Positions 10,520 to 39,200 of a stretch of DNA of 64,000 nucleotides are shown here, in pieces. Position numbers and translations under genes: made by a program. Numbering within the stretch: the first letter of the stretch is position 1; each line of letters opens with the position of its first letter. This DNA is from a virus. Lineage: Duplodnaviria > Heunggongvirae > Uroviricota > Caudoviricetes. The notes beneath the pieces were generated by a model. That model saw only the letters and a list, made by a program, of their open reading frames with translations. It did no database searches and was not told the origin of the DNA. The stretch spans positions 62,732-126,731 of IMG/VR virus record IMGVR_UViG_3300037510_000569. The stretch is one strand, 5' to 3'.

Positions 10520-10727
10520 GCTCGCGCTCGCGGTCAAGGAGTTCGCTGGAGCGCTCCTTGAAGTCGAAGAGACGCGAGACAAGCTGCAAGGCCTCGTCAA
10601 GTTCGAGCGGGAAGGTCTTCGCTACGCCGACGAGAGCTGGGAAAGCGCAGAGGAGGGCTACTCGCAAGCCTGCGCGCGTCTATGTCGCGCCAAGGACGAC
10701 CTTGAGGAAACGAAGTCCGCGCCATGA
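10512..10727 (+). CDS. hypothetical coiled-coil protein
   Basis: GTG overlaps the upstream stop; the upstream part of ORF 10446..10727 is antisense junk. Confidence 0.4.
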   Translation: MAELALAVKEFAGALLEVEETRDKLQGLVKFEREGLRYADESWESAEEGYSQACARLCRAKDDLEETKSAP

Positions 10728-10963
10728 AGCACTTCATCACCGTCAAGCTCGAGCGCCGGGAGCACAGCTTCGAGCACCCCGAGGGCGTGGCATATGAGCC
10801 GCGCCAACCTGACGACGAGCGCGAGAAGGTCGATCACGAGCCGGGCTACATCCGGCCCTCCGTGAACGAGCGCTGGCGGGCATCCTGCGCCTGCGGCTGG
10901 CAGGGCGAGCCGCACCGGCGACGCAACGAAGCGCGGCGGGAAGGTCGGCGACATGGCGTATGA
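10724..10963 (+). CDS. hypothetical protein
   Basis: ATGA overlap; 79 aa. Confidence 0.4.
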   Translation: MKHFITVKLERREHSFEHPEGVAYEPRQPDDEREKVDHEPGYIRPSVNERWRASCACGWQGEPHRRRNEARREGRRHGV

Positions 10964-11426
10964 GTCCACGAGCGTCCCGGTCGAGAAATCTCAAGGCCAG
11001 ATTCGCAAGCTGCTGACCGACGCTGGTGCCAGCCGCCTCGCCTTCGGAGAGGAACGCGAAGAGGGCCAGCGCGTCGCGATGGTGACATTCGAGATCGGCA
11101 CGAATATCGTGCGCCTGCGGGTTCCGCTGAAGCAGGTTCCCGAGAAGGCCGTGCGAGACAAGCACTACCGCTCTCGCACGAAAACGATGGATCAGGTCCG
11201 GGATGTCCTCTACGAGCAGGAGGAGAAGCGAATCTGGCGGGTGCTGGCTTGGAACCTCAAGGCGCGCATGGTCGCTGTCGAAGAGAAGGTCGAGACCTTT
11301 GAGGAGGCTTTCCTCGCACATCTCCTCGACCCGCAGACCGGCCGCACGATCTACGAGCAGCTCGCCGAAACCGGCAAGGTTCAACTGACCAAGCCGCTGC
11401 CTGCGTTGACCGCAGGGGAAGGCTAA
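10953..11426 (+). CDS. hypothetical protein
   Basis: 157-aa ORF with protein-like composition. Confidence 0.5.
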   Translation: MAYESTSVPVEKSQGQIRKLLTDAGASRLAFGEEREEGQRVAMVTFEIGTNIVRLRVPLKQVPEKAVRDKHYRSRTKTMDQVRDVLYEQEEKRIWRVLAWNLKARMVAVEEKVETFEEAFLAHLLDPQTGRTIYEQLAETGKVQLTKPLPALTAGEG

Positions 11427-11597
11427 CCTCAGGCGATGGGCGACATCGGCACCGAAAAGGAAGTGACGACGATCCCCGAGCCAGACTGGACCGAGCCCGA
11501 GCCGACCCAGCCAGCCCCGCCCGAGCCCGAGCCCGAGCGCGCACCTGAGAAACCGCCCGAGCGCGAGCCGGTCAAGATCCCCGCATAGGAGGCAGCG

Positions 11598-12530
11598 GTG
11601 GGGGACATCATCATCCCCAAGCCGATTGCGGCCTTCCGTAGCTGGCGGGTCGATGGCCTCGGCAGGCTGATTCCCCTTCACCACAGCGGGGAGGATTCGC
11701 CTTGGAGACCGCGTCTGATCGCTCAGGCTCAGTGCGGTAGTCGATCCAGACACAAGGACCTTGTGCCACATGACGGCTGCATGTGCGGACTCTACGGATG
11801 GCTGGAACCAGGGGGAGTAAGCCACAACGCAGGCAGAACCGTAAAGGGCGTCTTCGTCGCCTTCGGCCGCGTCGTTGTTCATGGCCGCGGACTCCGCGCT
11901 GAGAAAGGGCGCATCGTCGCGCTGATCGACGACAGCGACAAGGCACGCGAAGTAGGCAGCCTCTACGAGTTGCGTCTCGTGCCCGACGATGAGGCGCTGA
12001 AGGAGGAGGCCGAGCGTTGGGGCGAGGTGCGTGAGCCGACTGAAGCGCTAGTGAACGACGCTCTGTGGGCGGGCCAGATCACCGCGGCGAAACTCGTGGG
12101 CGAAACGATCACCGCCAAAAGGATCGTCTCCGGCTACCGAACTCCCCAGCAACAAGCCAACCTCGCCAACCATCCGGGCACCAGCAACCACGGTGTCGGC
12201 AGCCACCTCGGCCGGCCGACTCGGGTCGTCGCCATTCTGGAGTTGATGCCGCCCGCGGAAGTCGTTCAGTACCAGCACCCCGGGGGAGGCGTCAGGGTCC
12301 GCGTCAAAAACCTCGATCCCTGCTGGACCATCCGCAACATCATCGAAGAAGTGGAACGCATCGAAGCGCCATTGCCAGGCAGCCAACAGGTCCCGGCCTT
12401 CCCAGGCCGGCGCAGCTTCAAGCTAGAAATCGAAGGGGACTTTCCGGGCTACATCGAGGGCGATCGAGCCCTACGCGCTCTCCTGAGCATCGGCAGGATC
12501 AGCCAGATTTCCCAAGCGCCAATCGTGTAG
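11598..12530 (+). CDS. protein with an N-terminal C..CxCG(L/I)YA..GxRAE domain (paralog family, 3 copies) and a C-terminal region with a peptidase-M15-like SGYRTPQQQ motif
   Basis: RBS aggagg before the GTG; domain shared with 14063..14506 and 28495..29673(-); SGYR(S/T)xxxQ is the first signature of the VanY/LAS family, but the HxxGxAxD motif is not clear. Confidence 0.55.
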   Translation: MGDIIIPKPIAAFRSWRVDGLGRLIPLHHSGEDSPWRPRLIAQAQCGSRSRHKDLVPHDGCMCGLYGWLEPGGVSHNAGRTVKGVFVAFGRVVVHGRGLRAEKGRIVALIDDSDKAREVGSLYELRLVPDDEALKEEAERWGEVREPTEALVNDALWAGQITAAKLVGETITAKRIVSGYRTPQQQANLANHPGTSNHGVGSHLGRPTRVVAILELMPPAEVVQYQHPGGGVRVRVKNLDPCWTIRNIIEEVERIEAPLPGSQQVPAFPGRRSFKLEIEGDFPGYIEGDRALRALLSIGRISQISQAPIV

Positions 12531-12643
12531 TCTTGATCTCGTGATCCGCCGCCTCCCAGACGCGCTTCGATTTCGACCGCCCGCCACGGCGGCGGACGAC
12601 CACACGGGCAACTAGAGCCCCTCGTCCTCCGCCGCCTCACCCT

Positions 12644-12716
12644 GGGGCGGTAGCTCAGCTGGTAGAGCGCTGGCTTGAAACACCAGAGGCCGCCGGTTCG
12701 AGTCCGGCCCGTCCCA
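12644..12716 (+). tRNA. tRNA-Phe(GAA)
   Basis: Acceptor ggggcgg/ccgtccc, D-arm tagctcagctggtagagc, loop ttGAAac, T-arm gccgg-ttcgagt-ccggc. Confidence 0.7.
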
Positions 12717-12720
12717 TCCT

Positions 12721-12792
12721 CGGGCTGAAGTGTTGGTGGCCGCACACGCGGTTTGGGTCCGCGAGGCGAAGGTTCGACTCCTTCCAGCCCGA
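12721..12792 (+). tRNA. tRNA-Pro(TGG)
   Basis: Acceptor cgggctg/cagcccg, anticodon stem cgcgg/ccgcg, loop ttTGGgt, T-arm gaagg-ttcgact-ccttc. Confidence 0.65.
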
Positions 12793-12817
12793 TCCATTGC
12801 TAGGCTTCGACGACCGA

Positions 12818-12889
12818 TGCAGGGTAGAGGAGCGGCTTCCTTGTCGGGCTCATAATCCGAAGACGCGGGTTCGAATCCCGCCCCTGCAA
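12818..12889 (+). tRNA. tRNA-Met(CAT), elongator-type U1-A72
   Basis: Acceptor tgcaggg/ccctgca, anticodon stem tcggg/tccga, loop ctCATaa, T-arm gcggg-ttcgaat-cccgc. Confidence 0.65.
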
Positions 12890-12904
12890 CTCGCACCGCC
12901 CCTT

Positions 12905-15174: not shown

Positions 15175-17502
15175 ATGGCGAGCCTCGAAAAGAAATTCGG
15201 CTTTAACGGCACGACCTCTGAACAGCGTCGCGAATCATGGGTTCCCACAGTCGGTGGCGCAACCGGCCTGAGCATGAACGACTCGGGAACCCTCGCTGAC
15301 TCCCCCAACGATGCGGGCGCAAATGGCGGCTATTTCTTCCTTAATCGCGAAGGCAAAAGCCTCACGAACGGAGAACCCTTCTGGGAGTGGACCGGCACCT
15401 ATGAACAATTGGGTGTACCAGCGGGGGCGACTATCACGGCGATCAACGTCAGCTATGACTGGCGCTGCAATATCTTCTCAACGGGGGCGTCTAGTACGGC
15501 TGGACCAATGGAGCTACGCGATGAAGCGGCCGCCCTGCGCAAAACCTTTTCTACTTCCCAGGCCTTTGCAGCTACGAGTGAATGGGCGACAAAATCGGGA
15601 ACCAACCAAACCGGCCTCAGCGACAAAGCCTCTACCAAAATCAAGCTCCGGCTTAATGCCAATCCGAAGACTGGAAACGCAAGCAAAGCCGAAGTCAGCC
15701 TCTTGCTCGATTGGGTGGTCGTCACGATCACCTATGAAGAAGGAGCTGGTAAAAAACTCACGCTGGAATTGACGGATACCACGACGGTATCCGAGAGCCG
15801 CGCCGCCAAAGACGCGGCCAAAAGGGCGGACACGATCACGCCTACCGAGGCGCGTTCAAAGCGACCGGGCTTGAGACGCAGCGAGGCGGTAACGCCGGCG
15901 GACGCCCGCGCCAAGCGCGCCGGGCTAAAACGCACGGACGCGGCTACGCCCAGCGAGTCCCGCCAGTTGCGCCCGGGCCTGAAACGCGCCGACGCCGCGA
16001 CCGTCGCCGAAACCCTTAAACGAGCGATCGGCGAGCGGCGCAGCGACCTCGTGACCCTGGAAACTACTCTGCGCAAGGCAGTCGGGGAGAAACGCGCCGA
16101 CGCCGCGGTGCTCGCCGACAAACTGGTGAAGGCCCTTGGCTTGCGCCGCGCCGATGCGGTCAGCCTCCTCGAGGGGCTCAAACGCTCTGCGGGCAAGAAA
16201 CAGGCTGACGGCGTGGTCCTCGCCGACCTGCTGGGGCGGGCATGGGCGGCGAAATTGAAACTCACCGAGACGATCGCGCTAGACGAAGAACTGATCGTCT
16301 TCCTCACCCGTGAACTGGACTTGGAAGACGCCCAGGCTGTCTCGGACGCCTTCGTGCGCGTCTGGGCGGCGCATGTGGGACTCGGCGACATCGCCCAAGG
16401 CATCGACGCCAAGAAGCTCGACGCGGCCCTCAGGAGGGCGGACATCGCCGCGCCCACCGATGCCCTCTCCAAGGCGCTCGCGCGCGCCCGTGCGGACTCA
16501 TTGACGGTCTCCGACGCGCGCCACTTGGCGCAGGGTCTGGGCCTGCCGGAGTTCGTCGGCATCGCCGATGCGATGCACCTGGCCTTTGGCGTCGCCGTCG
16601 GCGTCGGGCATACCTTCGCTGTTCAAGACGCACTGGCGAGGGCCTGGTCGGCACGGCTCGCCGCAGCGGACTCCTTCGCCGTGGGCGACGAACTGCAGAC
16701 GATCGATCTCGGGCGCCTCTTCAGCGAGGGCGTCTCCGTCTCGGAGTCGCACGCCTGGGCTGCGGCGAAGCTCCTTGATGACTTCTTCGAAGTGTTGGAG
16801 GCTATGCACTCGGTTGTTGGCAAGCGTCTCAGCGATTCGGCGGTGATATCGGAGAGTCGGAAACGAGGGCTGGGGAAGAACCTCGCCGACGGGGTGGCCA
16901 TCCTCGAGGAGTTGGGCTTTTCGGGCGGCGAACTGCTCGCAGACGCATTTGCGCTGGTGGACGCCCGAAGGCTCACGCTGGCGAAACTCCGCACCGAGTT
17001 CTTGGCGCTCACCGAGACCCGCCATGCCGCTGTCTCAGCCAGCCGCAAGGACTCCGCCGTGGTGGTTGATTCGCTGCGGCAGGCCTCGAGCATGAAGGTC
17101 GCCGACGCGGTTCTGGTCGCCGATGCCTTGGCGAAGGCACTGGGCCTCAGCGTTGCGGAGACCATCGCTTTCGCCGATGCGCTCGAGACCTTGCGCGGCC
17201 TCGGCATATCTATCGACGAGTCAATCGGCGCGGCCGACTCGCTGCGGCGAGGTTCGACGCTGGCTTTCCACGAAGTCGCCCACGTCATCGACAAAGCCAA
17301 ACCCCTCGGCGTCGCCGCCCACCTCGCGCTTCTGCTTCTCGCCGATGTGCTTACCACTCACCTGTCCCTCTCAGATGGTGCCGAGGGAATCGCTGAGATC
17401 GCCGATAGCTCAGCCACCCTGCTCTACCTGGATGACGCCCTGCCCGACGCGGATGTATCCGACCGCCGCAGCACTACCCTTTCCCTGGACGATCACGGAT
17501 GA
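15175..17502 (+). CDS. 775-aa repeat-rich fibrous protein (about 18-21-aa ADxxxLxDxLxKAxGxxRxD repeats), putative fibre shaft
   Basis: Dozens of degenerate repeats after a 200-aa N-terminal globular region. Confidence 0.55.
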   Translation: MASLEKKFGFNGTTSEQRRESWVPTVGGATGLSMNDSGTLADSPNDAGANGGYFFLNREGKSLTNGEPFWEWTGTYEQLGVPAGATITAINVSYDWRCNIFSTGASSTAGPMELRDEAAALRKTFSTSQAFAATSEWATKSGTNQTGLSDKASTKIKLRLNANPKTGNASKAEVSLLLDWVVVTITYEEGAGKKLTLELTDTTTVSESRAAKDAAKRADTITPTEARSKRPGLRRSEAVTPADARAKRAGLKRTDAATPSESRQLRPGLKRADAATVAETLKRAIGERRSDLVTLETTLRKAVGEKRADAAVLADKLVKALGLRRADAVSLLEGLKRSAGKKQADGVVLADLLGRAWAAKLKLTETIALDEELIVFLTRELDLEDAQAVSDAFVRVWAAHVGLGDIAQGIDAKKLDAALRRADIAAPTDALSKALARARADSLTVSDARHLAQGLGLPEFVGIADAMHLAFGVAVGVGHTFAVQDALARAWSARLAAADSFAVGDELQTIDLGRLFSEGVSVSESHAWAAAKLLDDFFEVLEAMHSVVGKRLSDSAVISESRKRGLGKNLADGVAILEELGFSGGELLADAFALVDARRLTLAKLRTEFLALTETRHAAVSASRKDSAVVVDSLRQASSMKVADAVLVADALAKALGLSVAETIAFADALETLRGLGISIDESIGAADSLRRGSTLAFHEVAHVIDKAKPLGVAAHLALLLLADVLTTHLSLSDGAEGIAEIADSSATLLYLDDALPDADVSDRRSTTLSLDDHG

Positions 17503-18408: not shown

Positions 18409-21400
18409 GTGCTGCGCGAACCCGTTTTCGAGCCGATCGAGCAAGCGGCTGACGAGGACGATCCCGAGGGCCTGCTTGGCACCGCGGCCGGGCGTCTCCT
18501 CGAGGGTGCCGCCCACAGCGGTGCGATGGTCGCGCTCTACCCCGACGCCGCCACGGCGGCCGAGCTTGCCATCTCTGACGGCGAGGACGCCGACGAGCTC
18601 CACCTGACCCTCGCCTTCCTGGGCGAAGCGGAGAAGCTGAACCTCACGCGGGCGCTCCAGGTCGTCGCCGAGTGGGCCGCAGCCTGCCCGCCCAGCCTCT
18701 CGGGTGAGATCAGCGGCGTCGGCCAGTTCGCCACGGGTCCGGTCACCTACCTCTCAGTCGATCTGCCGGATCTCCCGCCTCTGCGCGAGCGTCTGGTCGA
18801 TGGGTTCGATGCAGCAGGGGTGCCGCCGAAGCGCGACCACGGCTTCACGCCCCACATCACGCTCGACTACGCGCGGCGCCGGCCCAAGATGGACAGGCCG
18901 ATCCCGATCCGCTTCGACCGCGCGACCCTGGCCTGGGCCGGTTCCCAGTTCAGCTTCCCGCTCGGCGTCCGCTCGGCGGTGCCCCTGCAGGAGGCCCGGA
19001 TGCTCCTGGAGGGCAAATGGGACGCGAGCCTCCACCCGCGCTGGCCGAAAGGCACCCCGCGCGCGGGCGAGTTCATGCGCGTGGGCCAGCGCTTCATCGG
19101 CTCCGACGGCAAGGAGTGGCAGATCGCCCACATCGCCGGGGGCAAGGTGATCGCCAACCGCGCCGAGGGCAAATACGCCGAGACGGAGACGGGGGTCTTC
19201 CATCCCGAGAAGGTCAAGGGCGGCAAGTCACCCCTCGAAGGCGGCGAGGAGACCCACGTCATCGCCGATGTGAAGAAAGAGGCCGCACCGCGCAAGGTCC
19301 AGGGAGGCAAGGGCAAGGGCGCGACGGTGCCGATCGTCGATCCCTACGTGGACGGGTCAAGCCACGACGCCTCTCTGCCGGTTCCGGCTGGCTCGAAAGT
19401 CAGCGCCGAGGAGTGGAAACGCTTCGGCAAGATCGACCAGGAGCACTACGCCGAGTTGATGCAGCGCTTCGGCAAATACAGCCCTGGCAAGGCCAAGTCG
19501 ATGATCGACGAGGCCTACAAGGACTACGAGGCCGAGATTCAGGCGATCGTGAAGAACGCCTACAGCGCCCAGTACGGCTCCTCCTCGGGCTTCACGCTGA
19601 GCCTCACCGGCGTCTTCAAGGCGATCACCGGCCAAGACAAGAAGGAGCTGGCGAAGCTCGACGCCCAGCGCCAGCGCGCCCTCGAGCTTCAGGGCCGCCA
19701 CAAAGACGTGATCGCCTGGGACCTCTACAACCGCACGCGCTCCCCTGACGTGGCGGTCTTCCACAAGTCCAACGACCCGCCGAGCTACTGGCAGGAGTTC
19801 ATCCAGGGCAACCGGCCGGTGATGTCGGGGCTGTCGCAGTCGTTCAACTTCGGCGCGAACTTCGGCTTCGGCTCGAACACGCTGGCGACCCCGCTGGCGA
19901 TCCGCCACGTCCTGATGTCCTCCTACTCCGCCCAGCCGATCCCCGGTCAGACCCACTTCGCCGGCGAGCTCGAGATCAGCGTCGCCGAGCAGCTCAAGAT
20001 CGACAACCGCTCGATCACCTTTTCGCTGCACGACATCACCGCCAACCAGAAAAAGTGGCTGATGGGAGTCACCAAGGCACCCACCGGCGGGGACACCGTA
20101 GAGCGCTTCAAGGAAGCGCTGCAGTCCGGCGAGATGCTGCCGACCCCGCCCGCCCCGCCGGACATTCAGATGCAGGGGGAGGGGCAGAAGCTCTGGATCG
20201 ATCCGCCGCCGGAGGCCGCCGATTACATCGAGCGCTTCGCCGACAAACTGCCGGCGCAGCAGGGGTCTCCGCTGGACCCCGGCAAACTCGACAAGAAAGG
20301 TCCGTGGGCCTTCAAGGATGCGGGCGGCTTGCCGAAAGCGACCGTCGCCAAGGAGTCCGAATACAAGCCCGGCGACTACATGCTGGGGCTGAAGGGCACG
20401 CTCTACATCGTCGTCGAGGACCCCGGCGACCCGACCGGCTTCGGCTTGCGCTACGTCAAGATCGAGAACGGCAAGTTCAGCGGGGAGTCCTACAACTTCG
20501 AGGGCGGCGGCGGCAATCAGTACTTCAAGCTCAGCGCCCACTACGAGCTCCCCGACCCCCACAAAGAAGCGAAAGCATCCGACCTCTTCGACCCGCACGC
20601 CTGGGTCAACGGCGAGAAAGAGAAGTTCGTCGGCAAGCTGGAGCCGGGCGACAAGTTCAAGGTCAACGGCAGCCCCTACGAGGTCAAAGCCCAGCTGAGC
20701 GGCGCCCAGACCCAGATCACCGACCTCACCAGCGGCAAGGTCGGCACGATCAACACCGACTACAAGACCCATGTCCTGGTGCCGAAGGAGGGCTACGTGC
20801 CCGAGGCACCCGAAGGGGAGAAGCTGGCGCCGGCCAAAGGGATGACGCTCGCCTACGACGGCACAAAGCACGTCGTGACGACGATCCTGAAGGACGGCAC
20901 CGTCAAGGCGAAACCGACCGGCGGCGGCAAAACGGTGGCGATCGCAGCAGACGATCCTGAGCTGGACAACCTCTATGACCCAACCGCCCACAAGATCGGG
21001 GCCAAAATCAAGGCCGGCGACCTCGCCGTCGGCCAGCTCTTCCACGGCGGCCGCGGTTCCACGCAGCGCCCCTACGTCATCACGGGCGCGGAGGGCAACA
21101 AGGTCACCTGGCGATCGCTGGACACTGGCGAGGAGGGCATCTTCACCAAGGCCAAGCAGGTCCGACTGCTCGATGACGCGGAAGCGCCAGAGCCGGAGGC
21201 AGAGCAGCCGAGCGTCGAGCCGATCTCGCACGACCAACTCAAGCCGGGGGACTCAACGACGATCTCCAACTTGAAGGCGGGCGACTTCTTCTCGGTCGAT
21301 GGCGAAGTCTTTAACGTGGTCTGGGAGCCGCCGACGCTCGAGGACAACGCCGGCGTGGCCAAGGTGATGCCATCAGGCGAGATCGGCGCGGGGAGCAGCG

Positions 21401-22713
21401 AGGGCGCTTACCCGGACAAGCTCGTCACCTACACGGGCACTGCGCCGCCGCTACCCGCCACCGATATGCCCGAGGGCGGATTCCCCGACCTAGTGGCCGA
21501 GGGCGGATTTGACCCCTACAAGTCGAAGTACGGCAGCGGCGGCAAATACACCCACGACAAGCTCGGCGAAATGGTCCCCGGCACGATCTTCCGCGACAAG
21601 GGCGGCAAGCTCTGGAAGATCAAGGAGGCCGACCACGCCGTCATCGTCACCGATGGCAATGTCCTCTACACCGCCGACGCTTCGCTGCGCGGGCGGGTCG
21701 TCCAAGCGGAGTTCGTCGACACGACCGGCCCGGTCAAGGGCCCGCACGCCGATCCTCAAGAGGTCGCCGCAGCGGAGGGCTTGGCCCCGAACAGCAAGGG
21801 CCTGACGATGGCTGATCTGCCAGCCGGTGCGACCGTCTTGGTCAACGGCGAGGTCCAAGTGGTCAAGGCGCCCGCCGAGCCCGGCGACGAGGTGAGCGCG
21901 CTGGCTGCTTCCACCGAACTCGCAGACGGAGGCGAGAACCTTCTGGGTCCGGCGATCATCCCCGATCAGATCAAGCTGCCACCGAAGGTGAAATCGTTGG
22001 GAGCCCTCAAGGAAGGCGACACCTTCGCAGGCGCGGACGGTAAGCAGCACATCGTCGTAGCCAAGTCCGTCGATGGCGACGTAGTCGTTAAGACGCCAGG
22101 AGGTCAGCTGTGGAAGCTCCCGCCCTCGACCCCGCGCGACGCGGTCGACGCCGGTGTCGATGGTGGCCTCGCTGCGCCGCCGAAACCGGCACCCCCACCA
22201 GGTGATTTGAAAGTCGCCGACCTCGAGGACGGCGCGGTATTCATGGGTGCAGGGGGCGAGCTCAATACGGTCGTCGCCAAGACGGTTGACGGCGGGATCG
22301 TCGTGATGAAGGGCGACAAGCCCGGCGGCGAGATGACGACCCTCCCCGGCACCGCGGTCATCAAGGCAAGCCAAGTCGATGTGGAAGCCGAGGGCGGCGT
22401 AGCGGGTATCCCGTCCGAGGGCGAGTGGAGCGAGGCAGTGCAGCAGGCTCTCGGCGAAGCAGGGGTCACGATGGAGGAGGTCCCGGTGGCGAGTGGGATC
22501 GAGGGCTACAAGTCCAAATGGGGCTCTGGCGGCAAGTACCAGCACTACATGCTGAGCGAGCTCGAGCCCGGCGCCGTCTTCGTCGACAAGCAGGGCAACA
22601 GCTACACCGTCGTCGGCGGCGGGCCGAAGGGGTCGATCCTGGTGCTCGGCTCAGCCAGCGGCCTGCTCAGCCTCGCGCCGGCGGGCCTGCGCGCGAAACG
22701 CCTCGAAAGCTGA
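18409..22713 (+). CDS. giant 1434-aa multidomain protein: N-terminal 2H phosphoesterase (LigT/CPDase-like), putative R-S-ExE ADP-ribosyltransferase region, then many repeats of a roughly 40-aa small beta domain
   Basis: Two HxTx motifs (HLTLAF and HITLDY) about 85 aa apart; YNRTRS...SGLSQSF...AGELEIS spaced like ART R / STS / ExE; repeats of L(K/E)xGDxF..G..Y.VV...DG.V.V and GYKSK(Y/W)GSGGKY. Confidence 0.7.
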   Translation: MLREPVFEPIEQAADEDDPEGLLGTAAGRLLEGAAHSGAMVALYPDAATAAELAISDGEDADELHLTLAFLGEAEKLNLTRALQVVAEWAAACPPSLSGEISGVGQFATGPVTYLSVDLPDLPPLRERLVDGFDAAGVPPKRDHGFTPHITLDYARRRPKMDRPIPIRFDRATLAWAGSQFSFPLGVRSAVPLQEARMLLEGKWDASLHPRWPKGTPRAGEFMRVGQRFIGSDGKEWQIAHIAGGKVIANRAEGKYAETETGVFHPEKVKGGKSPLEGGEETHVIADVKKEAAPRKVQGGKGKGATVPIVDPYVDGSSHDASLPVPAGSKVSAEEWKRFGKIDQEHYAELMQRFGKYSPGKAKSMIDEAYKDYEAEIQAIVKNAYSAQYGSSSGFTLSLTGVFKAITGQDKKELAKLDAQRQRALELQGRHKDVIAWDLYNRTRSPDVAVFHKSNDPPSYWQEFIQGNRPVMSGLSQSFNFGANFGFGSNTLATPLAIRHVLMSSYSAQPIPGQTHFAGELEISVAEQLKIDNRSITFSLHDITANQKKWLMGVTKAPTGGDTVERFKEALQSGEMLPTPPAPPDIQMQGEGQKLWIDPPPEAADYIERFADKLPAQQGSPLDPGKLDKKGPWAFKDAGGLPKATVAKESEYKPGDYMLGLKGTLYIVVEDPGDPTGFGLRYVKIENGKFSGESYNFEGGGGNQYFKLSAHYELPDPHKEAKASDLFDPHAWVNGEKEKFVGKLEPGDKFKVNGSPYEVKAQLSGAQTQITDLTSGKVGTINTDYKTHVLVPKEGYVPEAPEGEKLAPAKGMTLAYDGTKHVVTTILKDGTVKAKPTGGGKTVAIAADDPELDNLYDPTAHKIGAKIKAGDLAVGQLFHGGRGSTQRPYVITGAEGNKVTWRSLDTGEEGIFTKAKQVRLLDDAEAPEPEAEQPSVEPISHDQLKPGDSTTISNLKAGDFFSVDGEVFNVVWEPPTLEDNAGVAKVMPSGEIGAGSSEGAYPDKLVTYTGTAPPLPATDMPEGGFPDLVAEGGFDPYKSKYGSGGKYTHDKLGEMVPGTIFRDKGGKLWKIKEADHAVIVTDGNVLYTADASLRGRVVQAEFVDTTGPVKGPHADPQEVAAAEGLAPNSKGLTMADLPAGATVLVNGEVQVVKAPAEPGDEVSALAASTELADGGENLLGPAIIPDQIKLPPKVKSLGALKEGDTFAGADGKQHIVVAKSVDGDVVVKTPGGQLWKLPPSTPRDAVDAGVDGGLAAPPKPAPPPGDLKVADLEDGAVFMGAGGELNTVVAKTVDGGIVVMKGDKPGGEMTTLPGTAVIKASQVDVEAEGGVAGIPSEGEWSEAVQQALGEAGVTMEEVPVASGIEGYKSKWGSGGKYQHYMLSELEPGAVFVDKQGNSYTVVGGGPKGSILVLGSASGLLSLAPAGLRAKRLES

Positions 22714-22731: not shown

Positions 22732-23073
22732 ATGCCCGACCAGAACCTCCTTGCCCTCGCTCGCGCCAACCAGGTGCGAGAAGAACGGAAAGCGATCAAA
22801 GACAAGCTGGCGCGGCGGGAGCTTCTGCTCGACGATGTGCTCGAACAGCCGATCCCTCGATGCCTCGCCAACATGCGCGTTGTCGATCTGATCGCCTCGG
22901 CTCGCGGTTTCGGACAACCCAAGGCGAAAAGGGTGATTAAGCGCTTCCGCCACCCCGAGAGTCGTAGGCTCGGAAGCCTCTCCAAGCCTCAGCGAGTCGA
23001 GCTGGTCTTGCTCCTCGCTCGCCACAACGGACAGGCGCTCTACGGTGCAGCACACCGCGAGTACATCTGCTAA
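22732..23073 (+). CDS. mihF: mIHF / sIHF-like actinobacterial integration-host-factor-type DNA-binding protein
   Basis: MRVVDLIASARGFGQPKAKRVIKRF..RRLGSLSKPQRVELV resembles mycobacterial mIHF (recalled from memory). Confidence 0.55.
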   Translation: MPDQNLLALARANQVREERKAIKDKLARRELLLDDVLEQPIPRCLANMRVVDLIASARGFGQPKAKRVIKRFRHPESRRLGSLSKPQRVELVLLLARHNGQALYGAAHREYIC

Positions 23074-24372: not shown

Positions 24373-24623
24373 GAGAGACGCGCGCGCAAAAACGTATCCG
24401 CAAGGCTATGGAAGCTCGTCAGCCAGAAAAGATCACCTATGAGGAACTCGCGAACGTGGTGCAAGAAATCCGCGAACCCTGGCGGCCTCCCCCGGTAAAC
24501 TCGCCGAGGGGCTCATGTCCCCGGTCAGGAGCGACGGAGGGCCGAAGTCTGCGGGTTATCCCTTTCCTTTTACGAAAGAACTCCCGTCGGCAACAACATG
24601 CTCGCCGCTCGCTCGTGCGCTAG
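24369..24623 (+). CDS. small hypothetical protein; its 3' end is uncertain because the frame runs into the first Y-RNA-like unit
   Basis: ATGA overlap; MRETRAQKRIRKAMEARQPEKITYEELANVVQEIRE looks real, the tail is junk-like. Confidence 0.3.
   Translation: MRETRAQKRIRKAMEARQPEKITYEELANVVQEIREPWRPPPVNSPRGSCPRSGATEGRSLRVIPFLLRKNSRRQQHARRSLVR
24530..24612 (+). ncRNA. Y-RNA-like unit 1 (minimal)
   Basis: GGGCCGAAG..GGGTTATCC 5' motif and caacatgctcgcc 3' motif; no tRNA-like module. Confidence 0.5.
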
Positions 24624-24644
24624 GCTTTCTTCGCTTCAAGAGCC

Positions 24645-24780
24645 TGGTGTCGGGCCGAAGCGGATCGGTTATCAATTGGACAGAGCGCTCGCGCAAGCGA
24701 GAGGTTGCGGGTTCGATCCCCGCCTTCCACCGCTCCAACGGTGGATGTAGCTACACCGACTGCACCCCACGCTCGGCACC
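24645..24780 (+). ncRNA. Y-RNA-like unit 2 with tRNA-like T-arm module
   Basis: GGGCCGAAGcggatcGGTTATC ... gcgggttcgatccccgc ... gcaccCCACGCTCGGC. Confidence 0.55.
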
Positions 24781-24794
24781 TTCGCTAGACTCGG

Positions 24795-24933
24795 CTCCGC
24801 CGGGCCGAAGTGAATCGGTTATCTCATGCCAAGAGAGAGGTCGCGGGTTCGAGTCCCGCTCCGGGCCGCAAGGACCGGGTAGCTCAGCTGGTAGAGCGCT
24901 AAAACTCCGATTTGCACCCCATGCTCGGCGCTT
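24795..24933 (+). ncRNA. Y-RNA-like unit 3 with T-arm-like and D-arm-like elements
   Basis: GGGCCGAAGugaaucGGUUAUCUC (near-identical to the human Y RNA GGUCCGAAG..GUUAUCUC stem, from memory) ... cgcgggttcgagtcccgc ... gggtagctcagctggtagagcgc ... caccCCATGCTCGGC. Confidence 0.6.
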
Positions 24934-24947
24934 CTCGCTAGACTGGC

Positions 24948-25056
24948 CCCGCCAGGCCGAAGCGATCGTCGGTTATCACTGGTTCGATTCCTGTCAGCCC
25001 GCACTTGGGCTGTGCTCATGGGAGCTTCCCGACTCGCACCCCACGCTTGGCGACTT
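24948..25056 (+). ncRNA. Y-RNA-like unit 4
   Basis: AGGCCGAAGcgatcgtcGGTTATC ... ggttcgattcc ... gcaccCCACGCTTGGC. Confidence 0.5.
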
Positions 25057-25074
25057 CCACGCGCTAGACTCGCT

Positions 25075-25222
25075 TCCGCCGGGCCGAAGCAGGTTGGTTA
25101 TCGGCTCATAACCGGGTGGCCGCGGGTTCGAGTCCCGTCGCACCTCCGCCTTCGGGCCACGGGTGCGTAGCTCAGTTGGTAGAGCACCTAAACGCCAATC
25201 GGCAATCCCACGCTCGGCACTT
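25075..25222 (+). ncRNA. Y-RNA-like unit 5 with T-arm-like and D-arm-like elements
   Basis: GGGCCGAAGcaggttGGTTATC ... cgcgggttcgagtcccg ... gtgcgtagctcagttggtagagcac ... caatcCCACGCTCGGC. Confidence 0.55.
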
Positions 25223-25360: not shown

Positions 25361-26974
25361 ATGGGCCAGTATCTGCGCCAGCACTCCACGCGCTCCACGC
25401 CGCAGTCCGAGCCGATGAGCTCAGACCAGCGCCAGAACCCGGCCGGCGGCTTCGCTTGGCCGGTCGATGACTGGACGCGCGCGCGTCGCTTCCTGATCCT
25501 CGGTGCCGAGGGTGGCACCTACTACGTCGGTCAGCGCGAGCTCGTGAAGGACAACGCTGCGGCGCTTGAGCGCTGCCTCGCCGAGGACCCGATGCGCACG
25601 ATCGAGATGATCTGCGACATCAGCGACGGCGGTCTGGCGAAGTCCAACGACCCGGCGCTGTTCGCGCTGGCGATGGCGGTTGGCTCAAACGACCTGGAGA
25701 CGCGCCGCGAGGCTTGGCGTCGTCTGCCCCAGGTCGCCCGCATCGGCACGCACCTCTTCCACTTCGTTGCCTACATGCAGCAGTTCCGCGGCTGGGGGCC
25801 GCTGGCTCGCCGCGGCGTCAGCGCTTGGTACGAGGGCAAGGAAGCCGACAAGCTCGCCTACCAGCTCGTCAAGTACCGCCAGCGCGACGGTTGGAGCCAC
25901 CGCGACGTTCTGCGCCGCGCGCACCCCAAGGCACCGAGCGAACTGCACAAGGCGCTCTACGACTTCGCCTGCGGCCGGGAGTTCGGCGGCGGCGTGATCG
26001 AGGGCGAGGGAGGCGAGCGAGCTCTCAACATGATCGAGGGCTACCTGGCGGCGCAGAAGGCCGCAAGCCCGGCCGAGTCGGCGCGGCTGATCGGCGAGCA
26101 CGACCTGCCGCGCGAGGCGGTCAAGACCGACCACCTGACCTCGCCCGAGGTCTGGGAGGCGCTCCTGCGCAACATGCCGATCACGGCGATGATCCGCAAC
26201 CTCGCCAACCTGACTCGCGTGGGGATCATCAAGCCGATGAGCGACGGCGAGAAGCTCGTGGCAGAGCGTCTCGGCGACGAGGAGCGCCTGCGCAAGGGCC
26301 GTGTACATCCGATCGCGGTTCTCTCGGCGCTGACGATCTATGAGCGCGGCCATAGCGCCCTCGGTCGGGGCGAGGACTGGACGCCGTCGCAGAAGGTTGT
26401 TGACGCTCTCGATGCCGCCTTCTATACGGCCTTCGGGTCGGTGGAGCCCGCGAACAAGCGCACGCTGATCGCCGTCGATGTCTCCGGCTCGATGGGCTGG
26501 GGTGACATCGCTGGCGTTCCGGGGCTGACGCCGCGAGTCGGCGCCGCTGCGATGTCTCTGGTGACGGCGTCGACGGAGCCCGATCACGCGATCACCGCCT
26601 TCTCGCACACGATGGTCCCGGTCTCGGTCTCGCCGCGTCAGCGGATGGACGATGTGCTCCGCACCTTCGATGCTCTGCCGATGGGCGGCACCGACTGCGC
26701 GCTGCCGATGATCTACGCGGAAGAAATGGACCTCGAGATCGACACCTTCATCGCCTACACCGACAGCGAAACGTGGGCTGGGGAAGTCCACCCGGCTCAG
26801 GCCCTGCGCACCTACCGCGAGAAGACTGGCATCAACGCCCGCCTGATCGTCGTCGGCATGGTGTCGAGCGAGTTTTCGATCGCCGACCCCAACGACGGGG
26901 GGATGCTCGATGTCGTCGGCTTCGACAGCGCCGCGCCGGCGACGATGAGCGCCTTCTCCCGCGGCGAGGTCTAG
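25361..26974 (+). CDS. rsr: Ro60 (Rsr) orthologue: TROVE domain plus vWA domain with MIDAS motif
   Basis: RFLILGAEGGTYY, DGWSHRDVLRRAH, MPITAMIRNLANLT, RVHPIAVLSALTIYERGHS, LIAVDVSGSM (DxSxS), PMGGTDCALPMIYA, GMLDVVGFD; start set to the ATG with RBS gggagga because the upstream ORF extension overlaps the Y-RNA array. Confidence 0.85.
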   Translation: MGQYLRQHSTRSTPQSEPMSSDQRQNPAGGFAWPVDDWTRARRFLILGAEGGTYYVGQRELVKDNAAALERCLAEDPMRTIEMICDISDGGLAKSNDPALFALAMAVGSNDLETRREAWRRLPQVARIGTHLFHFVAYMQQFRGWGPLARRGVSAWYEGKEADKLAYQLVKYRQRDGWSHRDVLRRAHPKAPSELHKALYDFACGREFGGGVIEGEGGERALNMIEGYLAAQKAASPAESARLIGEHDLPREAVKTDHLTSPEVWEALLRNMPITAMIRNLANLTRVGIIKPMSDGEKLVAERLGDEERLRKGRVHPIAVLSALTIYERGHSALGRGEDWTPSQKVVDALDAAFYTAFGSVEPANKRTLIAVDVSGSMGWGDIAGVPGLTPRVGAAAMSLVTASTEPDHAITAFSHTMVPVSVSPRQRMDDVLRTFDALPMGGTDCALPMIYAEEMDLEIDTFIAYTDSETWAGEVHPAQALRTYREKTGINARLIVVGMVSSEFSIADPNDGGMLDVVGFDSAAPATMSAFSRGEV

Positions 26975-28205: not shown

Positions 28206-28498
28206 CGGTGATGATCGGACTCCCGACGCCTGCGGCCCAGATTCGGGAGGAGCTCGCTCGATTGCGGCGCAAGGGCCTGAGTTTCGAGATCGCCTGGCGG
28301 CGAGCACTTGAGCGCGTGAAGTGGCCCGAAGAGAAAGGGCCGCGCGACGAATGGAAGGCGATCCTCGCCGACGGCAGGCCGATGTGGGAGGACGCCTACC
28401 TCCGCAACGGCAACAAGCCGAAGGGCATGGAGGCGATCACCGGCTTCTTCCTCTCAGACGCCTCGGGCGAGCGCCAACCGCTCGAGGTCCTCGCCTAG
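28202..28498 (+). CDS. hypothetical protein
   Basis: ATGA overlap; 98 aa. Confidence 0.45.
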   Translation: MTVMIGLPTPAAQIREELARLRRKGLSFEIAWRRALERVKWPEEKGPRDEWKAILADGRPMWEDAYLRNGNKPKGMEAITGFFLSDASGERQPLEVLA

Positions 28499-29673
28499 CG
28501 CTTCACCCGCCGGAACCAGAAGGGCAGCAGGTACCCGATGCCGGTCGCGCAGGCGATGTAGAAGCCGGAGAAGAACACGCTGTGATCTGAGACGCTCATG
28601 GCGAAGTTCCACACGTAGCTGACGAAGAAGAGCAGGCAGAAGAACAGCATCACCGCGGAGACCGCCCTGTCGTACTTCAGGATGAAGCGGTCACTGCGGT
28701 CGAGCTTGATGTAGACCACAGCAGGGTGTTTCTTCGAGTGTCCGGGAGGGCAGACCTCGCCGACGTACATCACCATTCCCTCGCGCTCCTCCGGCGTCTT
28801 GTCGCCAGAGAGGACCTCGATCTCGTAGTTGCCGCGGGCGCGCGGCCTGCCATTGATACGAATGAGACCGCCTTCGCTCAGCGTCATCGGCGGCGCCCAG
28901 AAGATGTCGTTGGGGGTGGTGTCGAGCTCTGGCCGCATCTCCTCAGGAACGACATCGCCGTCTGTCTGGGACTCAACCCACGCGCGCATTGCTTTGGGCT
29001 TCGGCTCGATCACCTCGACTCCGTAGCGCCCGACCGCGCGTTTGAGCGCCGCCGCCAGGTCGTAGCTCGCCCCCTTCTCCTCGATCATCGCTTGCACCGG
29101 GGTACAGAGTGCGACGATTTCGGCGTACTCGGCTCGGATGCCCGCGTGGTGGACCTCCATGTCACCCCAGGCTCGGACGATGCCCGCGACCGGGATTGCT
29201 TCGCTCTTGCCGAAGCGGACCAGCTCGACATCACGCGGGTCGTGGTAGGCGTAGAGGCCGCAGCCGCAGTTGGCGAGGGGAGCGCGGTGCCCGTCGGCGA
29301 AGTCGGCCACGCAGACAGCGACATTGCGACCAGCCTCCCAAGTGGTGTTCCCCTGTCCCTGCGAGGTCAGGTATCCAGCTGCGTCAAGTTGCCAAGCGCG
29401 GAAACCGTAAACCGCCCCGACGAGATCCGGCGGAACCTCCGGCCGCGCCGGCGGCTCGAACTTCAGAGAGGCCGCTTCCCACTCTTCGATCGAAGTCTGC
29501 TCCCAATTGGTGCGCAAGTCGGTGACGCTGAGGACCAGCGTTTCGCCCATCCCACCAACCCGAGCAGGCAAGGTCTGTACGACCACGACCCCAGGAGCGA
29601 CAGGGACATGCTGAATTACGCGGACGAGCTTTAGCGGGTCCGCTGCGTTGCGCCAGTAGGTGCTCTCCAGCAC
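28495..29673 (-). CDS. paralog-family protein (FRAW..C..CGCGLYA..GIRAEYA domain) with C-terminal TM segments
   Basis: Minus-strand ORF with GTG start; third copy of the domain seen at 11598 and 14063; hydrophobic C-terminus LFFCLLFFVSYVW and FYIACATGIGYLLPFWF. Confidence 0.55.
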   Translation of the reverse strand: MLESTYWRNAADPLKLVRVIQHVPVAPGVVVVQTLPARVGGMGETLVLSVTDLRTNWEQTSIEEWEAASLKFEPPARPEVPPDLVGAVYGFRAWQLDAAGYLTSQGQGNTTWEAGRNVAVCVADFADGHRAPLANCGCGLYAYHDPRDVELVRFGKSEAIPVAGIVRAWGDMEVHHAGIRAEYAEIVALCTPVQAMIEEKGASYDLAAALKRAVGRYGVEVIEPKPKAMRAWVESQTDGDVVPEEMRPELDTTPNDIFWAPPMTLSEGGLIRINGRPRARGNYEIEVLSGDKTPEEREGMVMYVGEVCPPGHSKKHPAVVYIKLDRSDRFILKYDRAVSAVMLFFCLLFFVSYVWNFAMSVSDHSVFFSGFYIACATGIGYLLPFWFRRVKR

Positions 29674-29676: not shown

Positions 29677-29820
29677 TTAAGCGGGGACCTTCTCGGGTGC
29701 CTTCTCTGGTGCCTTTTCAGGCGCGCGCTCAGGCTTTGGCTCCGTGCGCTCTGGCGGTGGCGCGGGGGCACGAGCGGGGTCGTCTACGCGGATGCGCTGG
29801 GGCTTGCCTGGAAGGGTCAT
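29677..29820 (-). CDS. small Pro/Glu-rich protein (47 aa)
   Basis: RBS aaggaga before the ATG (reverse complement), partial start-associated motif; PERTEPKPERAPEKAPEKAPEKVPA; hand-translated. Confidence 0.35.
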   Translation of the reverse strand: MTLPGKPQRIRVDDPARAPAPPPERTEPKPERAPEKAPEKAPEKVPA

Positions 29821-29830
29821 CGAGATGTCT

Positions 29831-29923
29831 CCTTGGTCGGTTCGTTGGAGACTACATCCTGGCGCGCAACGCAGACAACAAAGCTGTGCAGCAGGTAGTC
29901 TGCCGCTACCCCGACCAAGGAGA
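29831..29923. promoter_or_regulatory. divergent regulatory region with two partial start-associated motifs, one per strand
   Basis: ccttggtcggttcgttgg on the minus side and ccccgaccaaggag on the plus side. Confidence 0.4.
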
Positions 29924-29926
29924 TTC

Positions 29927-36234: not shown

Positions 36235-39200
36235 ATGGCCGCCTCGCCAACGAATCGCACGCTGCAGGAGGTCAGCTCGTCGGTCTACCCCAAGCTCGAG
36301 CGCAAACCGGGGAAGCAGAACTGGGTTGACTACGCCGGCGGTCTGCCGTCCTACATCGAACGGATCGCCAAACACCTCCACTACGAGAAGGGCAAAGACA
36401 TCTCGACGGCGATCGCGATCGCCGTCAACACGGTCAAGAAGTGGGCGACGGGAGTCAACCACAACGGCTCGAAACTGAAGCCGGACACCGTTGCCAAGGC
36501 GCAGGCCGCCGTGGCGGAGTGGGAGGCGAAGAAGGCCAAGGCGAAAGGCAAGAGCCTGGCCGAGGCCGCTTACAACGAAGCGCCAGGCGGGATCGAGATG
36601 AGCGCGGAGGACCGCGCCTCGGTCGTTGGCACCTTCTCCCACCGCCTGACGCTCCTGGAGGGCTTCGCGCTGAACCTCAAGGGCGCCTCGACCAAAGGGA
36701 AGAGTGCGGCGCTCGACAATGCGATCGCTCTGCTGGAGGGCCGCGAGGTCAAGCTGGCGATCGGCGGCGGCAACGCCGACTCGCGCGCTCTCGCTCGCGC
36801 TCAGTCAGCGCTCGGCAAGGAGGCCGCGGAACTGCGCTCGGTGCTCGAGGCCTTCGAAGGTCCTCAGGTCAGAGCCGCTCGCCGCGATGTCAAGCAGCAG
36901 GCGAAAGGCCGAAACGGTCAGGCGGTCTTCGACGAATCCAAACACCCTCGCGCCGGGAAGGGCCAGCCGACCGGCGGGCAGTTCATCCGCAAGGGCGCCA
37001 CCGGCAGCGAGGTCAAGGGCATCCAGCGCGCGCTCGGGATCAAAGCCGACGGGAAGTTCGGCAACAAAACCAAGTCGCGCGTCGAAGAGTTCCAGCGCAA
37101 CCACGGCCTGACGGTCGACGGCGTCGTCGGCGCTCAGACCGCTGGCGCTCTCCACGGAACCGAAGCGGTGCCAGGCCCGCTCCTCTCCCACCACCGAGGG
37201 CGTCTGCGCAAGATCAGTCAGAAAGTCGAGAAGCAGTACTCGAAGGCATCGTTGGCGGCGGCCGACGCCAAGGAAAAACGCGAAAACAAGGCGCGCAAAG
37301 CCCGCAAAGAAGCTAGAAAAGAAGCAGAATCTAAGGCGAAATCTTCGTCTTCTTCGTCGTCCTCCTCCTCAGCCACGGGTACGGACAGTGGTGTCGGCTC
37401 GACGCTCGGCCCGGACTCAAGCCTGCCCGAGAAAGTCGTGCAGCTGATCCAGCGCAAACTCGGCATCGACACCAGCGGCTCCTACGACGAAGCGACCGAG
37501 AAGGCGATCCGCAAGTTCCAGCGCGACCACGGCCTGCTCGTCGACGGCATCGTCGGCACCCAGACCCTCGCCGCGCTGCGTGGCGATGAATCCCCGCCGG
37601 AGCCGGGTGCCTTCAGTGAGTCCGACTGGAGTTGGCTGACCCAGCACCAGGCCGGCGGCCAGCGCGAAAGGCGGCATGAGCGTCAGAAGGAGCATCGCCA
37701 GGAGCGTCGCCAGCGCCAGGAAGAAAAGCAGGAAGAACGCGAACTGCGGGTCGAAGAGGCGATGGTCAAGGACGACTTCGTGCGGCGCTACGGCGCCGGG
37801 ATGACTGGTGCGCCCGACGAGGCGACCGGCCACCTTCAGCGCCGCCTCACCGAGCTTGGCTACGAGCCGGGTGCTGACGACGGCCGCTACGGAGAGAAGA
37901 CCAAAGGCGCGGTCTCGAAGTTCCAGGGCGACCACGGCCTCAAAGAGGACGGCGAGGTCGGTCACGACACGAAGCTCGCGTTGCGCGGCACCGACCCCGA
38001 GGAGGTCGCCCGTCGGCGCACCAGCGAGGAGTCGGAGACCTCGGAGGAGAAGTCCGACGAGAAAAATGCTCAGAAACCTGTTCAGAAAAGTGACCAGGAA
38101 CCTGCTGAGGGCGAGCAGGAGGAGAAGGAGCCCAGCGAACGCCACAGCCTCGCCGGCGCAGTCCTCACCAAGGGCGCGGGCGTTGATGCCGAGGACGCCG
38201 ATCCTTCGGTCGAACAGATGCAGAGCATCATCGGCACCGAGGTCGATGGGCGCTTCGGCCCCGAGACCGAGAAGAAGCTGAAGTCGGTTCAGCGCCGCTA
38301 CGGGCTGAAGGCCGACGGCGTCGTAGGGCCCAAGACCGGCCGCCTGCTCGACCGCATGGCCTCCAAGCACAAGCCCGACCCGAAGAAGATGAAGGAGGCT
38401 GCTCTCGATGCCGCGATCCTCGATCGCATGGAGGCCGCCGTCGCGGGCGACAACACCGCCTTCATCAGAGCACGCGCTCGAGAGGAGCACGCGCGCCAGA
38501 ACCTCGCCGAGGCTTCCCTGCGCGGCATCGGCGGCGATCTCGTCCGCAGCTTCTACCGCCTCGACGACGGCACCTTTGCGCCGAAAGGGATGGGCCGCAT
38601 CCTCAAGCCGGGTGAGGAGATCAAGCTCCCCCACCGGAACGGCGAGGGCTCAGTCCGCGCTCGGATCGAACCGGGCGGCAACAAAGGCCGCGGCATCGCC
38701 AGGATTCTCGACGGCCCCGACGAGGGCCAGCTGGCGGCCGTGCGGACCGCTGCGCCAGCGGGGACCAGCCCACGCGGCTTCCCGCGGCCGCTCTCGAGGA
38801 AGCCCGCGCCACTGCCGCCAGGTGACCCCAGCAGCGGGGCCAAAGTGCAAGAGGTCAAATCGCAGAACTACCGCGACGCGATCAACCACCACATCACCAA
38901 GGGCGAGGACCACGCCGTTCAGGACCACCTGGACGACATGGAGAGCGATCACCAGTGGTCCGAACGTCAGGGCTACGGCAAGGCGATCGCCAACTACGAC
39001 GCGGCCAAGTCCGCAGGCGAGCACTTCCTGACCCACGGCGAGCCCCCTCAGCGGGAGTTGACCGGAACCGACGAGATCGCACGCGCGATGCGCGGCGGCG
39101 GGGAGACGATCACCACTCCAGCCGGGACTTTCAAGATCAGCGAGGACGAGGGGGGCTGGTATGCGCTCGACACCAGTGATCCAGAATCCGAGCACCTGGT

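Follow-up and report, generated by a model that had tools for sequence, protein, structure and literature searches.

A putative head-delivered effector of large uncultivated phages: a giant protein with an N-terminal 2H phosphoesterase and a divergent ADP-ribosyltransferase-like core

What might a phage do with a single polypeptide of 1434 residues that joins a 2H phosphoesterase to a domain resembling an ADP-ribosyltransferase (ART) and to a long series of small beta-rich repeats? This question is raised by an open reading frame (ORF) in the IMG/VR virus record IMGVR_UViG_3300037510_000569 (Caudoviricetes), of which we analysed positions 62,732 to 126,731, a stretch of 64,000 nucleotides that is referred to here as the window and in which the gene occupies 18409-22713 (+). 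A first-pass annotation had proposed an effector that is packaged in the virion and injected in the manner of phage T4 Alt, with an ADP-ribosylation activity coupled to the phosphoesterase, and every motif that it quoted was located in the protein. We lean towards a related reading, that of a modular, polyvalent-type effector protein delivered from the phage head. In its predicted layout, the protein begins with an exchangeable N-terminal cargo, here a catalytically intact 2H phosphoesterase of the LigT/ThpR type, followed by a short H-P-R...G-x-F junction motif (the HPR motif). Behind this motif lies a conserved core of ~370 residues, in which one SH3-like barrel and a helical subdomain precede what is probably a very divergent domain of the ADP-ribosyltransferase type; a flexible linker and about ten SH3/KOW-like barrels make up the C-terminal part. 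A public assembly independently holds the same gene call (P0001, 100% identity), which starts with GTG, and the alignments of homologues begin at residue 1.

The identity of the N-terminal domain can be stated firmly. Two HxT motifs, ELHLTLAFLG (residues 63-72) and PHITLDYAR (residues 148-156), place H65xT67 and H149xT151 84 residues apart. The domain matches PF13563 (2_5_RNA_ligase2; E 3.4e-12, 47.1 bits against a curated cut-off of 27) and PF02834 (LigT_PEase; E 6.5e-6, 26.7 bits against a cut-off of 23.3), as well as PHROG 'RNA ligase' (2H) families, down to E 6.5e-20 (PHROG 2659). In 34/34 homologues of the domain, the four catalytic residues (H65, T67, H149 and T151) do not vary. Judged by these matches and this conservation, the domain is certainly a genuine 2H phosphoesterase with an intact catalytic tetrad, as had been recognised at first pass from the two HxT motifs. 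Its match to TIGR02258 (E 2e-8, 34.3 bits) lies under the equivalog cut-off of 65.7, and we therefore regard it as a member of the superfamily rather than as an orthologue of ThpR. Among solved structures, E. coli ThpR/LigT (PDB 4QAK/5LDI; E 0.04) is the nearest in sequence, and the spacing of the two motifs and the Pfam matches liken the domain to it. Unlike ThpR, a stand-alone enzyme of 180 residues, the 2H domain here is the N-terminal domain of a giant protein.

For the role of this domain there are two readings, anti-signalling and the healing of RNA ends, neither of which is preferred here. The second is suggested by the RNA-related genes of the loci that bear 2H (see below), and the first by Acb1, a small soluble protein that is not known to be fused to virion proteins. 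Like the domain described here, Acb1 is a phage-encoded 2H-fold enzyme with an HxT/HxT tetrad, and it is used against host immunity, although a PDB search with the 2H domain of the 1434-residue protein gave no sequence match to Acb1 structures. Acb1 destroys CBASS signals (PMC9117128) and thus sets a precedent for a 2H domain that degrades cyclic-oligonucleotide signals. An anti-signalling role has also been proposed for 2H domains fused to MuF or portal proteins (Iyer et al.; PMC5512222 section 20; PMC9503650 section 3.4.5). By analogy with these cases, we infer that the 2H domain in the window might serve against host signalling as well, and the Tad3 domain that close relatives carry at the same site (see below) points in this direction.

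The relatives of the protein indicate which of its parts are constant. A profile of the ART-like module (residues 425-565), searched against 1.84 billion representatives, returned 91 proteins, and 91 representative clusters have the core. These relatives are giant proteins of 850-3500 residues from metagenomes and from IMG/VR viral contigs of 38-130 kb. The phage of the window is uncultivated, high-GC and contractile-tailed, with related contigs reaching ~110-130 kb. A scan of 185,579 genomes for prophages and hosts gave no family member. In the subset of relatives examined, the HPR motif and the core are the constant part of the family and the sequence that precedes them varies. Among the relatives retrieved, 2H was detected in the eight closest only (P0001-P0008). 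This confinement to one small lineage argues that the domain is a swappable N-terminal cargo, and that 2H and the ART-like domain are not an obligate pair. In two of the close relatives, P0002 and P0004, a Tad3 domain (PF25185, E 1.9e-30; residues 197-304 of P0004) lies exactly between 2H and the HPR motif. Tad3 is an inhibitor of type I Thoeris (PMC13243611), and its insertion at this position, which it does not occupy in the protein of the window, indicates that the slot hosts anti-defence cargo. The distant relative P0123 carries a bona fide MuF (SPP1 gp7) domain (TIGR01641, 40.5 bits, above the cut-off of 39.65), to which, as to PF04233, the 1434-residue protein has no match, and the N-terminal modules of several other relatives match no known family. 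An obligate coupling of 2H and ART is ruled out by the narrow distribution of 2H, and the functional coupling of the two activities that had been put forward for the protein is an unlikely point of the fusion.

The core of the family, from the HPR motif through the SH3 barrel and the helical subdomain to the ART-like domain, is not matched by any Pfam, NCBIfam or PHROG model, including ART-PolyVal. An AlphaFold model of the core, made from a 22-sequence alignment of residues 195-640, is confident (pLDDT 84.7, pTM 0.81) and consists of an SH3-like barrel (~228-291), a helical subdomain (~333-443) and a beta-rich domain (447-540). We consider it probable that an ART-like fold is present at about residues 447-560. 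The motifs on which the earlier ART assignment was founded are YNRTRS (residues 440-445), SGLSQSF (473-479) and AGELEIS (518-524), and conserved residues of the family do stand at these sites. In an alignment of ~98 homologues, in which the denominators count the sequences that have a residue at the position, H452 is invariant (98/98), and S476 (94/96), R499 (97/99), both glutamates of the ExE motif (E520 and E522, 95/98 each) and R442 (92/96) are nearly so. The conserved set of the helical and ART-like region further includes W437, D438, Y440, D447 and S473. The near-invariance of the five polar residues H452, S476, R499, E520 and E522 argues against a dead fold, and the chances that the domain is enzymatically active appear to us evenly balanced.

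The layout of this candidate site appears to depart from the R-S-E arrangement that had been assigned to it, in which cholera toxin, C3 and T4 Alt have Arg on strand 1, S-T-S on strand 2 and (Q/E)-x-E at strand 5. In the model, R442 lies five residues ahead of the predicted strand 1, H452 lies within that strand (VAVFHKS), and a later strand begins with E520xE522. Genes of 249-273 residues that encode the domain by itself also exist (P0118, P0120 and P0124, the last being a complete internal gene), and their products keep FHGG, GYSW and PIR motifs and a single glutamate (x-E), without R442 and E520. The FHGG and GYSW motifs resemble the 'HG' of strand 1 and the 'Y[SF]' of strand 2 that mark diphtheria toxin and PARP, and on the strength of this motif resemblance H452 and E522 would be equivalent to residues of those enzymes. 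The universal residues, H...(Y/L)S...R...E, therefore look more like a modified H-Y-E site that has gained an ExE motif than like an R-S-E site. Of the H-Y-E pattern, which has His on strand 1, Tyr on strand 2 and Glu on strand 5, the histidine and the final glutamate are widely kept in the family, and the strand-2 position 475 is Tyr in 11 relatives and Leu in 69, as it is in the 1434-residue protein (L475).

Beyond the linker, the small L-x-x-G-D-x-F...G...V module recurs, and what had been reported as at least eight repeats amounts to 11 mutually alignable copies, one in the core (~222) and ten between residues 650 and 1431, which AlphaFold predicts as separate five-stranded barrels. The segments YKSKYGSGGKY (1037-1047) and YKSKWGSGGKY (1367-1377) are N-terminal extensions of two of these barrels. 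The array forms the C-terminal 55% of the protein and is poorly conserved among relatives in number and sequence, the core being the constant part. Its barrels resemble SH3-like domains that bind RNA, ribosomes or RNA polymerase (RNAP). A role of the array in DNA condensation was considered and ruled out, because the array is acidic (pI 4.9). The features of the protein are listed in Table 1; the low confidence of the linker was read at model residues ~390-446.

Table 1. Coordinates in the window of the giant gene, of its predicted domains and motifs, and of a related motif in a second giant gene
Feature	Coordinates	Strand	Remarks
Whole ORF, 1434 aa	18409..22713	+	GTG start; identical gene call in public assembly
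2H phosphoesterase domain, LigT/ThpR-like, residues ~33-190	18505..18978	+	Pfam and PHROG matches; TIGR02258 below cut-off
Catalytic H65xT67	18601-18609	+	
Catalytic H149xT151	18853-18861	+	
Junction motif W-D-x3-H-P-R-W-P-K-G-T-P-x-A-G-E/Q-F, residues 204-226	19018..19086	+	Between N-terminal cargo and conserved core
First SH3/KOW-like barrel, residues ~228-291	19090..19281	+	Part of conserved core
Helical subdomain and ART-like putative catalytic domain, residues ~315-565	19351..20103	+	Predicted strands 447-540
Partly helical stretch, then Pro/Ala-rich low-confidence linker, residues 566-651	20104..20361	+	pLDDT 40-66; PPAPP visible in sequence
Array of ~10 SH3/KOW/Tudor-like five-stranded barrels (predicted), residues 652-1431	20362..22701	+	
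Second copy of HPR junction motif, residue 237 of the 1468-aa PG_binding protein (36235-40641)	36928..36999	+	

Delivery from the virion head is suggested by the genomic surroundings of the relatives. In five independent loci whose core protein lacks 2H (L003/L009, L005, L011, L013 and L014), a portal gene (phrog_10963, E 1.7e-26) is followed by a giant ART- or NUDIX-bearing protein and then by the core protein, so that the core gene stands one or two genes after the portal gene; a PG-binding protein, a 455-residue protein and the major capsid protein are encoded further along these loci. Moreover, the same 2H subtype is fused in other proteins to a portal (PF06074, PF04860) or to an S78 prohead protease (PF14550), and in Gordonia, Arthrobacter and Streptomyces phages it lies beside or inside capsid-protease/MuF genes. 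Proteins in which 2H is fused to MuF or portal domains have been proposed to be packaged in the head (PMC5512222 section 20; PMC9503650 section 3.4.5). With the MuF domain of P0123 and with gp48 of Streptomyces phage Gilgamesh, an HPR-bearing protein encoded next to a portal-MuF fusion (see below), these observations make the packaging claimed at first pass plausible, although the window itself, which has no detectable portal, does not add to it. Head delivery is the best-supported reading, and we favour it by a modest degree. Under such a scheme, the protein would be produced alongside the head proteins, be enclosed in the capsid and enter the cell together with the DNA. There, the 2H domain would hydrolyse RNA ends with a 2',3'-cyclic phosphate, or cyclic or 2'-5'-linked nucleotides that serve as immune signals, and the ART-like domain would modify a host target using NAD+.

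The giant proteins that relatives encode between the portal gene and the core protein constitute a further family (841-2659 residues and longer; L003 7483-10008, L005 7173-9995 and 12963-16424, L004 1531-9510, and in L013 and L014), whose members have terminal modules in common at both ends and carry ADPrib_exo_Tox or NUDIX as insertions. MuF was not detected in these proteins, and no homologue of the family was detectable in the window.

Several observations weigh against an injected ART effector. No portal was found in the 64-kb window by PHROG scans of 30 ORFs, by phmmer with the portals of the relatives or by a hidden Markov model (HMM) built from five portals. The upstream neighbour of the gene, in the window and in the three closest loci, is a repeat protein of 775-1261 residues rather than a portal. 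The other neighbours are non-structural, namely an AAA_25 ATPase with weak helicase-like matches on the upstream side and, on the downstream side, Y-RNA-like RNAs, Ro60 and a DNA ligase. Genes for the head and tail, with the major capsid protein at 42812, the sheath at 46812 and the tape measure at 50160, begin only ~20 kb downstream. When the whole protein and the core served as megablast and tblastn queries against 50,697 phage records, the 2H domain alone was matched, and no cultured relative of the protein as a whole was obtained. As for the ART-like domain, Pfam, NCBIfam and PHROGs gave no ART family even at E <=1, whether with the full protein, the isolated 141-residue module, 23 relatives or the 3 stand-alone forms. 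Profile HMMs were built for the core (A2), for the ART-like module (A3) and for the stand-alone forms (A5), and with each of them the complete set of PDB sequences returned nothing or noise (aspartate aminotransferase, E ~0.2), and Foldseek with the core model found nothing significant in the PDB (best E 0.14). An hhalign comparison of the module with a weak, 3-sequence profile of the neighbouring bona fide ADPrib_exo_Tox domains gave a probability of 0.1. Finally, the strand-2 aromatic residue typical of H-Y-E ARTs is Leu here, and NAD+ binding may thereby be altered or lost. Membership of any described ART family thus failed when tested by sequence comparison, and of the ART domain that had been called at first pass there stand a plausible fold and conserved residues at the indicated sites, without a profile or Foldseek match.

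The same facts can be read in other ways. The protein might be an RNA-repair or anti-defence enzyme that is never packaged and is expressed inside the cell with neighbouring RNA-maintenance genes, its 2H domain healing the 2',3'-cyclic-phosphate ends left by host anticodon nucleases and its barrels binding RNA, ribosomes or RNA polymerase. The resemblance of the barrels to domains with such partners, the lack of a nearby portal and the ~16 tRNA genes in the window are consistent with this, as is the presence of Ro60/TROVE 2.4-4 kb downstream in 4/4 loci that bear 2H (the window, L001, L006 and L007). Sub-threshold matches to YrlA-like RNAs lie just upstream of Ro60 in 3/4 of these loci (the window, L001 and L007), and L007 also encodes RtcB and a PNK 3'-phosphatase upstream. 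However, the linkage to Ro60 is found within one fairly narrow lineage (47-76% identity) and may reflect shared ancestry. Most family members lack 2H altogether, and the gene follows just after the portal in the five loci that contain one. The MuF domain of one member and the repeated fusion of the same 2H subtype to portal or prohead protease also point to the head. We consider the RNA-repair explanation unlikely, but deserving of serious weight.

Alternatively, the protein could be mainly a structural component of the virion, such as a head fibre, a decoration, an internal scaffold or an element of the ejectosome, in which the array does the work, the ART-like core is non-catalytic and only 2H is an enzyme. 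Family members reach 3500 residues, and in the four that were scanned with Pfam (two of them longer than 3200 residues) only KOW/gpW-like barrels were found C-terminal to the core; the canonical strand-2 Tyr is Leu in most members, and ART profiles do not match. Yet the five polar residues of the candidate site are near-invariant across members of only 30-40% identity, the ART-like domain also exists as a stand-alone gene of 270 residues, and it is the core rather than the array that is held constant, all of which makes a structural role improbable. The original proposal, taken here in the specific form of an Alt-like R-S-E enzyme that modifies arginine and hands its product or by-product to the fused 2H domain (ADP-ribose-phosphate or Appr>p chemistry), would fit the conservation of R442, S473/S476 and E520xE522 among the giant forms, and KptA and 2H enzymes are known to cooperate in RNA repair (PMC9503650 section 3.7.3). 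Against it stand the placement of R442 and of the invariant H452 relative to strand 1 and the stand-alone forms, in which R442 and E520 are not conserved. Moreover, 2H was detected in the eight closest relatives only, and Tad3, MuF or unrelated N-termini occur in the family as well. We regard it as improbable. The modular, head-delivered effector is the reading that we retain.

With respect to known systems, this reading brings the protein close to the polyvalent proteins of phages (Iyer 2017, 2022). These are large multi-domain phage proteins with unrelated enzymatic domains, among whose listed components are both 2H and ART. Domains of disparate activity likewise meet in one polypeptide here, as 2H and ART-like in the window, 2H, Tad3 and ART-like in close relatives, and MuF and ART-like in P0123. 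The relatives are encoded right after a portal and one has MuF, while the giants beside them carry ADPrib_exo_Tox or NUDIX; this link to the head and to packaging is found in the relatives (portal adjacency in 5 loci, and MuF) and was not found in the window. There are differences as well. The 1434-residue protein lacks MuF, portal and processing peptidase domains, its core matches no ART-PolyVal model, and more than half of it is an array of SH3/KOW-like barrels. Furthermore, polyvalent ARTs are described as H-Y-D, whereas the site here is H-(Y/L)S-R-ExE. T4 Alt is an R-S-E ADP-ribosyltransferase that is packaged in the head and injected, and it is the model for a virion-delivered ART that acts as infection begins. 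The protein of the window showed no detectable relationship to Alt by sequence or profile, its layout looks H-type on strand 1 rather than R-S-E, and its delivery is proposed from its relatives.

The combination of 2H and ART, which had seemed undescribed at first pass, is therefore not in itself new. Fusions of 2H to MuF or portal, and ARTs in polyvalent proteins delivered by the virion, were described in 2017 and 2022 (PMC5512222 sections 9 and 20; PMC9503650 sections 3.4.5 and 3.7.1), and the general idea of head-packaged polyvalent effectors with 2H and ART among their domains has thus been published before. New here are a core that lies outside the curated libraries searched, its ART-like site of unusual pattern, the HPR motif at the junction, the long arrays of SH3/KOW barrels, and the slot that receives 2H or Tad3 as cargo.

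Among these elements, the HPR motif is also common to the second giant protein of the window, as had been noticed at first pass, and no further similarity between the two giants was detectable. H209, P210, G220 and G226 are invariant in 24 relatives. In P0014, P0018, P0020 and P0078 the copy at the core is degenerate and a canonical 'LHPRDRFGRFIET'-type copy stands near the N-terminus, and in P0086 two copies flank a module of no known family. This distribution suggests that the motif is needed once per protein, and we infer from it a possible targeting or processing signal. A short-query tblastn search for the motif in cultured phages gave only gp48 of Streptomyces phage Gilgamesh (L002, MN234216; 11911 onwards) and a weak match in a haloarchaeal virus, and a literature search on the motif gave nothing useful. 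Gilgamesh gp48 is an unannotated protein of 4625 residues, whose N-terminus has a W-x-P-x-L-H-P-R-D-x-x-G-R-F motif followed by an SH3-like segment or barrel, and whose gene stands directly after that of a 'portal and MuF-like fusion protein'.

The remainder of the window gives the setting of the gene. ARAGORN finds 16 tRNA genes and Rfam 13, in three clusters upstream of the giant gene (3940-12890, +), with an additional doubtful tRNA-Ala at 28417-28505 (-). The 775-residue protein upstream (15175-17502, +) consists of degenerate repeats rich in Ala, Asp and Arg (...KRADA..., ...RRADA...) and has no Pfam, PHROG or NCBIfam match; it is a conserved upstream neighbour in the lineage with 2H, with 1261 residues in L001 and 956 in L006. 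Directly downstream of the giant gene, as in L007 and L015, is a small protein with an S13-like H2TH_5 domain (22732-23073, +). The Ro60/TROVE protein, which also has a vWA domain (25361-26974, +; PF05731 E 1e-42, PF25045 E 4e-63), is preceded by YrlA (Y RNA-like) matches at 24836-24900 and 25091-25211 (+), which score 40.8 and 36.9 bits (E 1.6e-6 and 2e-5), below the gathering score of 69. Together these are probably a phage Ro60-Y RNA module, and the 198-residue ORF at 24515-25111, which covers one of the YrlA-like matches, could be spurious. An HNH endonuclease is encoded within two ORFs, one of them of 702 residues with HNH at its C-terminus only; these ORFs and an ATP-dependent DNA ligase are located at 4484-6592, 29744-30739 and 33902-35095 (+); L006 pairs a similar DNA ligase with Ku.

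The second giant protein, of 1468 residues, has four PG_binding_1 repeats and homologues that range from 344 to more than 3700 residues. Its gene lies just upstream of a 448-455-residue protein and the major capsid protein, both in the window and in L003, where the head genes fall within the fetched flanks, and the protein may be a virion-associated cell-wall-binding or ejection protein. It is followed by the structural module of a contractile-tailed phage (41024-63316, +), which includes a 448-residue protein of no known function, an HK97-type capsid protein (42812-43885), a neck protein (44889), the tail sheath (46812-48293) and a tape measure of 1414 residues with an SLT domain (50160-54404). 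The capsid protein has <=31% identity to that of any cultured phage, and no terminase was identified in the window.

More broadly, the ~90 clusters may be viewed as a platform for delivery from the head that has so far gone unrecognised in large actinophage-like viruses. In such a platform, the slot before the HPR motif would hold interchangeable anti-defence modules (2H, Tad3 and unknown domains), the motif would act as a capsid-targeting or proteolytic-release signal, and the constant warhead would be a new ART clade with an H-(Y/L)S-R-ExE site. We put this forward tentatively, as a possibility that is on balance doubtful. If it were true, the unknown N-terminal modules (e.g. those of P0018, P0086, P0117 and P0121) would amount to a list of new immune-evasion domains. 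The position of the variable slot could in any case guide a search for new anti-defence domains. The HPR motif, common to another giant protein of the same phage and to Gilgamesh gp48, can be tested as a candidate targeting or processing signal, and Gilgamesh offers a cultured system in which its role could be examined. The core would represent a very divergent branch within the ADP-ribosyltransferase superfamily. Were the protein injected, large phages could deliver immune-evasion enzymes, 2H here and Tad3 too in close relatives, ahead of any phage gene expression.

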